64,000 bases of DNA, taken from NCBI GenBank assembly GCA_951406725.2, contig OX597825.1:84010001-84074000 (forward strand). Direction: 5' to 3'. Made by a program: the position numbers and the translations under genes. Source of the stretch: Octopus vulgaris. Lineage: Eukaryota. Under the pieces are notes generated by a model. The model worked only from the letters and a program-made list of their open reading frames with translations. It searched no databases and was not told the origin of the DNA. Positions 32,725-53,150 of the stretch are shown piece after piece (position 1 is the first letter of the stretch; the number at the start of each line of letters is the position of its first letter).

Positions 32725-32779
32725 ATGTTGGTTCTTTCCTTTTGGAGTATTTTATTCTTCACCTTTCCTCATTTTACAG
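32725..32779 (+). CDS. Uncharacterised type I membrane protein, exon 1: signal peptide MLVLSFWSILFFTFPHFT
   Basis: accATG start, hydrophobic peptide, strong donor CAG|gtaagt, phase 1 matching the next exon. Confidence 0.7.
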
Positions 32780-33189
32780 GTAAGTCCTCTTTGTTATTTA
32801 TTCCTTTGTGCAATCATTGTGTCTGGCTGTGAATGGTCAAGGAGTTTGTCTTCAGGTCAGTTTCCACTGTATGTCACTTTGGATTAGTTAGTGTCTTGTA
32901 CAATAGTGACATGTCGACCAAAGTCTATGGAGTAGAATTTGATTGTTGGGGATCCTGTGGAAGTATTTCTGTTCCTGTTCTTGCGGGGTTGACTTCATCC
33001 ATTGCTTGGTTTAATTACTTGAGATTGTACCTAGTTGTATGAAACAAATCTACTCTTTTAAAGTGGTCCAAATTAAAACCCTCAGTCAAAATTTCATGTT
33101 AAATTTTGTTCTAAATAACAGTTTTTATAATGACAATGTTATTTTACCAAATTCTTCATTATTTTCTGCAAGGCATGGAAAATGAAAAG

Positions 33190-34060
33190 AGGTTTACCTA
33201 CCTTCCTCTCTCATCGACCCCTATCAAGCAGTAATCTCTCCGGCAATCCTGCCCTACCCCTGTCACCCAGTATAAGCAGCTGCTATCTGACCAACCAGGA
33301 AGTGAATCCCCTGACGTCCGTTCACGATGCCTCTGGTGGGCAAAAAGAGCCTGATGCTCGCCTCTTTCCCCCTACTTCCCTTCTCATGCTTCCTCTTCCG
33401 GTCAGTTCCTTGACCATTGACATCATGACACTTTTCTTCTGGCTCATCTCCAAATGCTCCACTGATCTCAACGATCACTTCTTCACTTCACTCCATGTCG
33501 AAATCTACCACCCACGTGATGCCATCCTTGACCACAACTACAACCTTGCACGTTGTGATCTTCTTAAGCTGGGAACCTCATTCTCTTCCTCTTCACCACA
33601 GTCATCATCTGACGGAGCGACAATCCTACGAACATCTAAGACATGATGTTGAATTCCATCCACAGAACTGTTGTTTTTGGAATTGACAGCCATCCCTATT
33701 CTTCTGTTCCACTGAGTTGAGCCTTTGGTGGCTTCACCCAGACTTCATCTCCCACCTCCACAAAGATGGGTCCCCACTCTTCTACAGGGCATCTTGATGG
33801 TTTACTTGGATGCCACCATTCATATTTGAATATCATTCTATGTGGCACGGACTCTTTGCCCTGACCTGATTGGAGCAGCATGTTGTACCAGAATACTGCT
33901 TTCAGCGGTGATATGTGTGTCCTCTCCACTATGGCCTTGATCATGCAAGAGCCTGACACTCACCTCTCTCGCTCCACTTCTCCTTTCGCACTTCCTCTTC
34001 CGGTCAGTTCCTTGACCATTGACGTCATGACCCTCTTCGTCTAGCTCTTCCCACATTTTC
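33190..34060 (-). mobile_element. Gypsy-like LTR retrotransposon integrase C-terminal remnant with an internal ~110-bp duplication (33345-33450 vs 33946-34050)
   Basis: AVFWYN...VEVGDEVWVKPP and VNSKNNSSVDGIQHHVLDVRR; the duplicated block is directly visible. Confidence 0.6.
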
Positions 34061-34445
34061 CAACTTCATTGATGAAGGCACAGTATTTCAACATTGTGCT
34101 AACATTTCTGTCAGCTTGCTGCCTTCCCTAACATTAACATTAACCACTCAATCATGAAATATGAGTGGATATTGCAAAAAAAAAAAAAATCATAATTAGA
34201 TAATGATACAATCAGATTTATTCTTGATTCATAAAGGAAACAAGTAAAAATAAAGCATTTTTTTCTTGAGTGAAAACGTAGGAAGAATTCAGGTTTACAT
34301 GGTTATTCAGATTTTCATGCTATTTTCAAAACCAATTCCAGTGTTTCATGTGAGTTTTCTCACTGTATTCATTCACATTGAAAAATGTTTGGATTTTTGA
34401 AAAAATATATCAGTAATGTCTTTTCTTTCTCAATTTATTTGCCAG

Positions 34446-34639
34446 ATGCCCAGAACACAACGTGGAACGTAGAAATTTGTTTCTTTGAGGCATATTACTA
34501 CTCAGCCGCAGTCACTTTGAACAATGAATCGAAAACCACAAGAAGTTTAGGGTTGCAAAAATGCTTCAACAATAATTTTGAATTAAACAGTAGAGAAAAG
34601 CCAAGTTCTATTGAAGTTAACGAGCATACTGGTTATAAG
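34446..34639 (+). CDS. Membrane protein exon 2 (repeat 1 long exon, DAQNTTWNVEICFF...EHTGYK)
   Basis: AG/GT bounded, 194 nt, phase 1-0, open frame. Confidence 0.75.
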
Positions 34640-35317
34640 GTAATTAAATCAAAATATATATACACTCACTAGCAAACATACACAAACACAAATATGCAAA
34701 CATACAAAGGGCATAAATTTTGGGTGTGCTAGCTGTGTGCCCACACACACTGAAATTGACAAATTCATTAGAATTACTCAATTTAATTACAAATCATCAT
34801 CATCATTTAATGTCCACTCTCCCTGCTGGCATGGGTTAGACGGTTTGATTGGAGTTGATGGACTGGAGAGCTGCACCAGGCTGCAATCTGATTTCGCTTG
34901 GTTTCTGCAGCTGGATGCCCTTCCTAATGCCAACCATTCCAGGAGTGCAATGGGCGCTTTTCCGTGCCACCGACACTGGCAGCAACCAGGACTATGATTC
35001 CCAAATAGGTACTGTCTACATGGCACTAGTAGCAACCCCGATAATTCATTGGTGCCATTTGCATGGCATTGGCAAAGACTACGACCAACGACCATGATTT
35101 CCAAGGGACCAATTTACCTGGCACCATTGATGACCACAACTCTGATGCCCAAGTATCATTTACATGATACCATCCTTGACCACAACGACAACCAGCAGCA
35201 AACAACCATGACTATGGTTCAAAGATGCCATTTATATGGCACCAGCAACGACCATGACACATGGGTGTCATTTCCATAAAACTGGCACAGCCACAACTAC
35301 AACCTTAACGGAAAGCA

Positions 35318-35463
35318 TTTGTTATAACCCTTTTGTTATAACCTTTTGTTACAACCCTTTTATTATAACCCCTTTTGTTATAACCTTTGTTACAACCTTT
35401 CTTAATAACCTTTTCTTATAACCCTTTTGTTACAACCCTTTTGTTATAACCCCTTTTGTTATA
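35318..35463. repeat. TTGTTATAACCC-type minisatellite
   Basis: About ten imperfect 13-15-bp units. Confidence 0.85.
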
Positions 35464-36269
35464 CATCATCATCGTTTAACGTCCGTTTTCCGCGCTAGCA
35501 CGGGTTCCCTACTTGAAACTACACCAGACTCCATTGTCTATTTTGGTGTGGTTTCTATGGCTGGATGCCATTCCTAATGCTAACCACTTTTGAATATGTG
35601 AGGTTGCCAAGTAAGTTTTAAGACAGGAAACGACAAGAAAAAAGGGAAATCTCTCAAAGAAGTGGGGACAAAATTTAAGTGGGTGGACTTTGCCTTTCAT
35701 TCTTATTTATTCTTATTTATTATCTGTTTTATAAAAGAGGTTTTGTTATTTCCCATGATACTTAAGGCAGGGAGCTGACAGAATCATTGCCACACTAAAG
35801 GTGGTGAACTGGCAGAAAGGTTAACACAACGGGCGAATTGCTTAGCAGTATTTTGTCTGTCTTTATGTTCTGAGTTCAAATTCTGCCGAGATCAACTTTG
35901 CCTTTCATCCTTTTGGGGGTCAATAAATTAAGTACCAGTTGCATACTGGGGGGTCGAACTAATTAACTGGCCCCCCTCCCCCAAAACTTCGGACCATGTA
36001 CCTAGAGGAGAAAAGAATATTTAAGTGGGTGGAGAGGTGATTTTATGCGAGGGACAAGCAAAGATAGAGGTGTCTTGCTGTGGTGAAGATGCCTGGCTAC
36101 CCCACATTTATATAAGAGAGGATGAGAGTAGCAAGGAAAAGATAAGCTGGTAATGGTGTGGTACCAGAGAAAAACACTCAAGAAGCATCATCATCATCAT
36201 CATCATCACAATCAAACTATTTTACACATTGCACTGTTGCTAATTTTCGCTGAATAATTTCTATTTTAG

Positions 36270-36354
36270 GCAGTTGTTCAAAATAAAGATCTTCAAGAAA
36301 TGTATGCTTTAGAGTGCCCGTCACAATGCCATGGGAACCAAAAGTTAGAAAAAT
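36270..36354 (+). CDS. Membrane protein exon 3 (short exon copy A, AVVQNKDLQEMYALECPSQCHGNQKLEK)
   Basis: 85 nt, phase 0-1, tttag acceptor and gtaag donor. Confidence 0.75.
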
Positions 36355-51120: not shown

Positions 51121-51577
51121 GCTATCTTGATGAAATCCACTCAATCACACGCCAGATTTTACCATAACGATAATTACGCGTGCGGTTCAATTGATTACAT
51201 CGGACGTTATAATTCAAATGCCCCAACCAACAGCGCGCCAAACTCTCACGGAAAAACAAATACAGCATTTAGAAATAAATGCAGCATAATTATAATTAAT
51301 TAATAAGGGTGAGAGAATTAGATACTAATTTAATAGTATATTTATTCCACACCAAGTGGCCTAGTGCTACGAGAAACCTGGATTATTATAATATTTTATA
51401 ACATATTATAATATTTTCACAAAATAAATATAAGAGAGTGTTCACTATATTGATCACTCTAGCACTAGTTAATCCAAGAGGTTTCAACCACGAAAAATAC
51501 ATGTTTCCCATGAAAGCCGGTACGACTGTTAGTTCACACGGACAGGGCAAATAAAAAATAACAAAAATACAGATTAT

Positions 51578-51655
51578 CTTGGGACAATTGTTTCGCTATT
51601 AATGAATTAAATGTAATATTACTTACAGTAATCCATTTGTAGCTCTTCAGCCAAG
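51578..51655 (-). ncRNA. Type I hammerhead ribozyme, copy 5
   Basis: Same sequence as copy 1. Confidence 0.88.
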
Positions 51656-52112
51656 GCTATCTTGATGAAATCCACTCAATCACACGCCAGATTTTACCAT
51701 AACGATAATTACGCGTGCGGTTCAATTGATTACATCGGACGTTATAATTCAAATGCCCCAACCAACAGCGCGCCAAACTCTCACGGAAAAACAAATACAG
51801 CATTTAGAAATAAATGCAGCATAATTATAATTAATTAATAAGGGTGAGAGAATTAGATACTAATTTAATAGTATATTTATTCCACACCAAGTGGCCTAGT
51901 GCTACGAGAAACCTGGATTATTATAATATTTTATAACATATTATAATATTTTCACAAAATAAATATAAGAGAGTGTTCACTATATTGATCACTCTAGCAC
52001 TAGTTAATCCAAGAGGTTTCAACCACGAAAAATACATGTTTCCCATGAAAGCCGGTACGACTGTTAGTTCACACGGACAGGGCAAATAAAAAATAACAAA
52101 AATACAGATTAT

Positions 52113-52190
52113 CTTGGGACAATTGTTTCGCTATTAATGAATTAAATGTAATATTACTTACAGTAATCCATTTGTAGCTCTTCAGCCAAG
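52113..52190 (-). ncRNA. Type I hammerhead ribozyme, copy 6
   Basis: Same sequence as copy 1. Confidence 0.88.
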
Positions 52191-52767
52191 GCTATCTTGA
52201 TGAAATCCACTCAATCACACGCCAGATTTTACCATAACGATAATTACGCGTGCGGTTCAATTGATTACATCGGACGTTATAATTCAAATGCCCCAACCAA
52301 CAGCGCGCCAAACTCTCACGGAAAAACAAATACAGCATTTAGAAATAAATGCAGCATAATTATAATTAATTAATAAGGGTGAGAGAATTAGATACTAATT
52401 TAATAGTATATTTATTCCACACCAAGTGGCCTAGTGCTACGAGAAACCTGGATTATTATAATATTTTATAACATATTATAATATTTTCACAAAATAAATA
52501 TAAGAGAGTGTTCACTATATTGGTCACTCTAGCACTAGTTAATCCAAGAGGTTTCAACCACGAGGTTTCTCGTAGCACTAGGCCACTTGGTGTGGAATAA
52601 ATATACTATTAAATTAGTATCTAATTCTCTCACCCTTATTAATTAATCATATATATATATACATATTTACATGCTCCATCTTCTGTATCATTTATTTAGA
52701 ATATAAATATCTTTGCTCCAGTAAAGGAAAATATGTAATAGTCATTATTTTAAACTTGTTTCTTGCC

Positions 52768-52843
<76 letters not shown>

Positions 52844-52855
52844 TGTCTATTGCAG

Positions 52856-53150
52856 ATACAATACGCTCAGAAACAGTATAAACAATGCTAACACATCAAC
52901 AATTCAAGACGTTGCTGAACAAGGTTATTTCCCCATGCAAATAAACACTCCAGTTCGTATTAGTGAACACAGTCAAGGATTTGCAGGGTGTGACTATTGC
53001 TACATGCAAAATCCCAGCTCAGTTGAGTCCAGTCAAAGATCAACGTCTTCACAGCTTAACCCTCTAGATGTATGTAAAAGCAGAAATCCACTATCAGAAG
53101 AGTCAGCTCAAATTTGTAATTCTCCAATATATGAAGAACTAACAGTATAG
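52856..53150 (+). CDS. Membrane protein exon 14: cytoplasmic tail with YNTL, YFPM, YCYM and IYEEL motifs, stop TAG
   Basis: ttgcag acceptor, phase 2 matches the TM exon, frame open to the stop at 53150. Confidence 0.75.

Follow-up and report, generated by a model that had tools for sequence, protein, structure and literature searches.

A clustered, octopod-restricted family of predicted single-pass glycoproteins with tandem, probably PLAT-derived repeats

The PLAT/LH2 domain (PF01477) is known from lipoprotein and pancreatic lipases, lipoxygenases, and Rab6IP1/DENND5, and its canonical loop motifs T-G...G-T-D and H-D-x-S-G have a calcium role. LOXHD1 is a cytosolic protein with many canonical PLAT repeats and with neither a signal peptide nor a transmembrane (TM) helix, and polycystin-1 is a multi-pass protein with REJ and GPS regions whose sole PLAT domain is cytoplasmic. 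Diversifying clusters of Ig-type receptors are represented by KIR, LILR, fish NITR, and Hydractinia Alr. Cephalopods are not known to have adaptive immunity. Their C-type lectin repertoire is described as reduced (PMC10140915). Passages of PMC4890752 describe the polycystin-1/REJ family as membrane proteins with a PLAT domain.

In the window, the 64,000-nucleotide stretch of the Octopus vulgaris genome that was analyzed, 14 exons on the + strand (32725..53150) join into an open frame of 2004 nt or 667 amino acids (aa) without an internal stop. Their phases are 0-1, then five times a long 1-0 and a short 0-1 exon, and finally 1-1, 1-2, and 2-0, corresponding to a signal exon, five long/short exon pairs, a stalk, a TM exon, and a tail. 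A preliminary description had proposed 14 in-frame exons of consistent phase (about 667 aa), an alternation of long and short exons (here found five times), and many N-glycosylation sequons (here 19, all extracellular) followed by stalk, TM helix, and tail (exons 12 to 14); all of this stands, and the 10 peptides quoted there are all present on the + strand within 34460-43322. The coding part of exon 1 (32725..32779, phase 0-1) encodes a predicted signal peptide. It is preceded by a 5' untranslated part (32549..32724), where an X2 contig starts at 32549 with 55 extra letters, and the acceptor AG at 32547-32548, with its acceptor context and in-frame stops preceding the ATG, implies a non-coding exon upstream. 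Repeat 1 consists of exon 2 (34446..34639, phase 1-0, strands 1 to 5; eight genomic matches) and exon 3 (36270..36354, phase 0-1, strands 6 to 8), repeat 2 of exons 4 (36973..37163) and 5 (38297..38381), repeat 3 of exons 6 (39778..39983) and 7 (40759..40852), repeat 4 of exons 8 (41264..41496) and 9 (42517..42610), and repeat 5 of exons 10 (43317..43543) and 11 (44940..45039). The predicted glycosylated stalk follows in exon 12 (46575..46655, phase 1-1; 27/27 identical in O. sinensis), a TM helix without internal charged residues in exon 13 (48134..48197, phase 1-2), and a cytoplasmic tail and the stop in exon 14 (52856..53150; 71/97 identical in O. bimaculoides), the tail having five tyrosines and a Y-E-E-L motif at its end. 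Twelve of the 13 introns are GT-AG, and the sole GC-AG intron follows exon 5. Hydropathy gives one N-terminal hydrophobic stretch and one TM stretch (mean of about 3), and together with the helices of the models and conservation in the family it predicts a type I single-pass glycoprotein with a signal peptide, one TM helix, and sequons on the N-terminal side of the TM helix, which supports the single-pass receptor proposed earlier.

This is a spliced, real octopus gene and not a chance joining of frames, because the O. vulgaris prediction CAI9731462.1 is identical over five repeats, stalk, and TM helix (550/550 residues) and O. bimaculoides XP_014775790 (671 aa; LOC106873081 X1) aligns over all 14 exons. 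Identity per repeat is 77 to 89% with the latter and 95 to 98% with O. sinensis LOC115217897. Exon 4 is 5 codons longer in O. sinensis and in O. bimaculoides, and the deletion seen here, like the GC-donor exon, is also found in CAI9731462.1. The tail has a different end in the predictions for O. vulgaris and for O. sinensis. The junction mapping suggested in the preliminary description succeeded in part: the read comparison covered 32300-45080 (exons 1 to 11) and used runs presumed to be RNA, none being recorded as such, and the read joints listed were taken up by repeats. One low-depth X2 contig matches exon 4 exactly (36973-37163) and resumes its match at 39778, where exon 6 begins; between them lie 85 letters, equal in number to exon 5. 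In contigs of X1, X2, and X3, which come from two studies, the match breaks off at 41496, the donor of exon 8, and the contig sequence continues.

Exons 5 and 6 are a copy of exons 3 and 4 (DNA identity of 82% and 88.5%, respectively, flanks included), and most full-length paralogs have four repeats. The five divergent domains of the preliminary description are thus five two-exon repeats of unequal divergence, which belong to four types, the fifth repeat being the product of an internal duplication. The duplication predates the split of the three Octopus species. Because exons 3 and 4 were duplicated as exons 5 and 6, repeat 2 is chimeric, pairing a long exon of type 2 with a short exon of type 1; it stays open in the three species, and the short exons of types 1 and 2 are interchangeable there. 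In profile-profile comparisons between repeat types, only the similarity of the duplicated pair was real, and a match of repeat 1 with repeat 2 was rejected, since it arises from the duplicated short exon.

The family comprises at least about 15 loci (counted by eye from positions), clustered on C12 (75.5-76.5, 79.8-79.95, and 84.0 Mb), C10, and C26. Single-exon genome searches gave 13, 12, 13, and 8 matches, none of which carries a stop, and among 40 paralogous long exons the phase-1 acceptor was kept in 39 and the phase-0 donor in all 40. The hydrophobic N-terminus is likewise conserved among paralogs. Protein searches gave 14, 19, and 25 matches, every named one being an uncharacterized Octopus or Argonauta protein. 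Searching 1.84 billion representatives with a profile yielded 30 matches, of which the nameable ones are from Octopus or Argonauta and about half, mostly fragments, carry no species assignment here. In a quick tree of 26 proteins, three Octopus species form a one-to-one clade that includes this gene; several further shared subfamilies adjoin it, and the two Argonauta proteins branch separately, with long branches. These results support an octopod-restricted gene family, in line with the lineage-specific family suggested earlier. The preliminary description recognized no described receptor with tandem extracellular PLAT-like domains, and no account of the family was found in searches of the open-access literature: six locus ids had no match, and family locus ids were absent from three supplement files of PMC9712504, the supplements of PMC13230822, and the text of PMC9258296.

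The proposed PLAT likeness holds for the predicted fold of the last repeat and for motif register but not at the level of profile scores. A PLAT fold is predicted for repeat 5, which is an eight-stranded PLAT sandwich in both models. Foldseek on the whole models gave only lipase and lipoxygenase rows above 0.9 probability, and all PLAT rows of the structure comparison, with one alignment displayed per entry, fall on this repeat; other rows (ferlins and LILR; TM score of about 0.1) are multi-domain and uninformative. Repeats 1 to 4 have about eight strands each in the predicted models, which are of the whole chain and not of single repeats. A Pfam search of 11 exons and 14 proteins of the family yielded no PLAT or other domain, any matches being noise due to TM stretches. 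PF01477 is absent from the 25 of 48 Pfam families listed for 37 family members and matches 29 stretches in this genome, 0/29 of them at a family locus. The family profile had 0 matches among PDB sequences, the ESM Atlas gave no usable match, and family profiles detected nothing in the PLAT regions of C19, C12, and C23. Profile-profile comparison of family repeats with octopus PLATs had the register right, but the score was not significant.

The strand 6-7 PLAT motif (W...hydrophobic-x-hydrophobic-x-D...Y-x-F-x-C) is in register with the family repeats. The PLAT residues that follow the intron site were made into a 14-column profile, which was slid along each family repeat type; the best score fell at the family's own intron in three repeat types and the third best in the fourth (ranks 1, 1, 1, and 3). 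The test is post hoc; among 97 PLAT windows the one used comes out best, with the next best ranking 3, 1, 4, and 1; of 5000 column-shuffled profiles, 1 does equally well. For exons 8 and 9, the repeat whose PLAT resemblance had been pointed out, strand count and motif register at the intron are suggestive, although structural PLAT rows occur only on the last repeat. We infer PLAT ancestry of repeats 1 to 4 from strand count and from motif register at the shared intron, and PLAT ancestry of all repeats appears highly probable. The family is invisible to Pfam, HMMER, and language-model searches, yet its probable origin is still recorded by intron position.

PLAT genes elsewhere in the octopus genome put these features in context. 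In two canonical PLAT genes, one at C19:57.2 Mb and one at C12:21.1 Mb, a phase 1-0 exon ends five residues past the PLAT Trp, and the candidate for the 0-1 exon after it has 88 or 79 nt (predicted from the best-scoring downstream acceptor; family short exons have 85 to 100 nt), and these genes share both the exon pair and the sequons with the family. The internal phase-0 intron is a minority state, found in 4/23 canonical stretches spanning the site. A single-exon gene at C23:3.59 Mb encodes a predicted signal-mucin-PLAT-mucin-TM protein that, as in the family, bears PLAT on a single-pass ectodomain. The C19, C12, and C23 genes each have a single canonical PLAT in the stretches read and go undetected by family profiles. 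Because of the C23 mucin-like gene, single-pass proteins with PLAT outside the cell have a precedent in this genome, and the novelty is the tandem, degenerate, diversifying PLAT-like family and not extracellular PLAT by itself.

The ancestral PLAT job may have been kept, with the repeats binding lipid surfaces or hydrophobic molecules in lipid sensing or capture (mucus, prey, or seawater films) and not in immunity: lipase and lipoxygenase PLATs are the best structural matches, PLAT has lipophilic loops at one end and binds phospholipid weakly according to passages of PMC3338420, and chemoreceptors are equally compatible with diversifying selection. Against this, the T-G...G-T-D loop motif is present in 1/100 family repeats versus 14/27 canonical stretches and H-D-x-S-G in 0/100 versus 8/27 (many of these stretches being partial), and the ectodomains are heavily N-glycosylated by prediction, with 5 to 19 sequons each. 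With the loop motifs lost, calcium-dependent membrane docking by the family repeats is unlikely as judged from their sequence, and we regard a lipid role as unlikely overall. It is less probable still that only the membrane-proximal repeat is PLAT and that the distal repeats are other beta-sandwiches with coincident exon phases; the confinement of PLAT rows to the last repeat and the lack of significant profile similarity between repeat types would fit, but phases and strand count are alike in every repeat, all three distal types have their top-ranking PLAT motif position at the intron, and the short exons of types 1 and 2 are interchangeable in the chimeric repeat.

Close paralogs show an excess of replacement changes in their distal repeat. 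For repeat types 1, 2, 4, and 5, mean dN over mean dS across all pairs was 1.04, 0.82, 1.14, and 0.43, and pN exceeded pS in 11/11, 4/10, 7/11 (mostly tiny counts), and 1/7 close paralog pairs, respectively, these pairs being mutually dependent, uncorrected, and without the gene at 32725..53150. In three repeat-1 exons, replacement sites differed by 17 to 21%, silent sites by 6 to 8%, and flanking introns by 3 to 8%, the last figure including constrained splice signals. Positions that vary in repeat 1 are found in two loops and on several strands. At the other end of the protein, tails are poorly conserved between subfamilies, but all 15 tails examined, Argonauta included, have tyrosine, and 13/15 have an acidic YxxPhi motif. 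The tail of this gene has a single ITIM-pattern match, abutting the membrane; a distal match occurs in 2/15 tails, and internal TM charge in 0/15 helices.

A paralog has been detected in skin mucus. The part of the PMC10138644 supplement consulted lists three ectodomain peptides of LOC115224696 (four spectra, three skin-mucus runs), with error probabilities of 0.005 to 0.03 and with two peptides common to further uncharacterized loci. One of the peptides is located in a C26:0.64 Mb exon of this genome. Among the rows listed in that mucus table, there was no match to the id of the present gene, to other ids, or to any of six motifs of the family.

Self, gamete, or cell-cell recognition or adhesion (allorecognition, fertilization, or tissue wiring), with targets other than microbes, would predict identical architecture and the same selection signature, and Octopus species have subfamilies in common; nevertheless, skin mucus holds paralog peptides, and of the high allelic polymorphism that allorecognition would predict, the exonic pieces of the listed contigs show no differences. 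Such a role seems rather improbable. Hardly likelier is a glycocalyx or shed protective protein without signalling, a glycosylated spacer with a nearly idle tail, for which the 19 sequons, the ectodomain peptides in mucus, the TM-less isoforms predicted in two species, and the divergence of subfamily tails speak, but which is at odds with tyrosine motifs in all 15 tails examined and with a repeat-1 replacement excess that implies specific binding.

Whether the gene encodes a type I surface glycoprotein with PLAT-sandwich repeats as an Ig-like recognition scaffold, a variable tip, and a signalling tail is, in our judgment, evenly balanced. On this recognition-scaffold reading, a PLAT module with phases 1-0-1, like those of two other octopus genes, would have multiplied into tandem two-exon repeats, likely all PLAT beta-sandwiches. 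Above a conserved proximal PLAT repeat, the diversifying tip (repeats 1 and 2) may bind targets at body surfaces that are foreign or non-self and that change; because tips change fast, variable targets, e.g., microbes at the skin, are likely recognized. The tail could pass the signal on through tyrosine phosphorylation and SH2 docking, and soluble forms, shed or spliced, might enter mucus. We tentatively suggest, as a possibility short of even, that this is an octopod immune or non-self receptor family made from PLAT by exon shuffling, with loops stripped, positive selection at the tip, tyrosine signalling, and soluble forms, convergent with KIR/LILR-type clusters. Clustered, diversifying at the tip, and with one member in skin mucus, the family is a concrete candidate for surface non-self recognition.

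Compared with PF01477 proteins, family repeats have no Pfam match and have lost the loop motifs, and the proteins are tandem and, by prediction, N-glycosylated and membrane anchored, with extra cysteines and no catalytic partner domain. The closest tandem arrangement is in a multi-PLAT gene at C11:99.27-99.35 Mb, presumably LOXHD1-like from its architecture, in which a phase-1 intron starts 9/9 repeats found, at the same place as in the family, and an internal phase-0 intron is present in 2/8 second halves seen; unlike the family repeats, its PLAT sequence is canonical. LOXHD1 identity was rejected, given the signal and TM helix, the Pfam-undetectable repeats, and the separate C11 gene, as was polycystin-1/REJ identity, given one TM helix and no REJ or GPS Pfam families. 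An ITIM/ITAM paired receptor was also rejected, as strict ITIMs and charged residues are practically lacking in the 15 tails and TM helices, respectively, and no charged-TM activating partner was found. With KIR, LILR, NITR, and Alr, the family shares clustered paralogs, tandem sandwiches, a variable distal domain, tyrosine-bearing tails, and possible soluble forms; it differs in having a probable PLAT fold rather than an Ig fold, and LILR and KIR appear in Foldseek only as weak whole-chain rows (TM score of about 0.1 to 0.2). If the proposal is true, PLAT joins the short list of folds that serve as tandem receptor ectodomains.

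Exons 3 and 4 of the octopus receptor gene are duplicated as exons 5 and 6. Exon 4 (window positions 36973 to 37163) lacks five codons that are present in Octopus sinensis and O. bimaculoides, and the same loss is seen in a contig from X2, a sequencing run presumed to be RNA. In exon 6 (39778 to 39983), a conserved Trp is replaced by Cys in both O. vulgaris and O. sinensis. One of the two duplicate repeats may be decaying.

Repeat number also varies among the predicted proteins of the family, with P0018 missing the last repeat and P0028 carrying a doubled repeat 1. Two predicted isoforms of one subfamily (P0007 and P0016, compared against P0046) lack the transmembrane segment, and the TM-less isoforms of O. 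bimaculoides and O. sinensis share a frameshifted end, possibly representing a conserved soluble form.

Intron 13 of the receptor gene contains a tandem satellite with a 535-bp unit (49285 to 52563; ~6.1 copies, 99.7% identity), which could be a recent array or an expansion introduced by assembly. Beyond the gene lie a 13-bp tandem array (53923 to 54368) and, adjoining it, a minus-strand tRNA-Leu(AAG) (54611 to 54692). The neighboring gene is likely LIG3, judging from a minus-strand DNA ligase 3-like exon (13545 to 13766) that matches human 3l2p (E value = 4e-6).

Elsewhere in the searched octopus genome (G000), canonical PLAT domains split over two exons occur on chromosomes C19 (57.20 to 57.21 Mb; stretches L053 and L054) and C12 (21.11 Mb, minus strand; L062). 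These are encoded by apparent 1-0/0-1 exon pairs and contain N-glycosylation sequons, and a candidate Ser/Thr-rich exon lies downstream of the C19 PLAT; possibly, the split PLATs are relatives of the ancestral module of the receptor family. On C23, near 3.59 Mb, a plus-strand single-exon frame of 627 amino acids (L067, 5140 to 7020) includes one canonical PLAT (Pfam E value = 1.6e-8). Its order of a signal-like start, Thr-rich mucin, PLAT, Ser/Thr stalk, TM-like stretch, and short tail predicts a single-pass mucin with an extracellular PLAT. A multi-PLAT gene on C11 (99.27 to 99.35 Mb), LOXHD1-like in its architecture, comprises at least nine repeats, and a phase-1 intron marks the start of every one; the six PLAT exons clustered on C20 (70.1 to 70.5 Mb) we take to resemble lipoxygenase N-termini.
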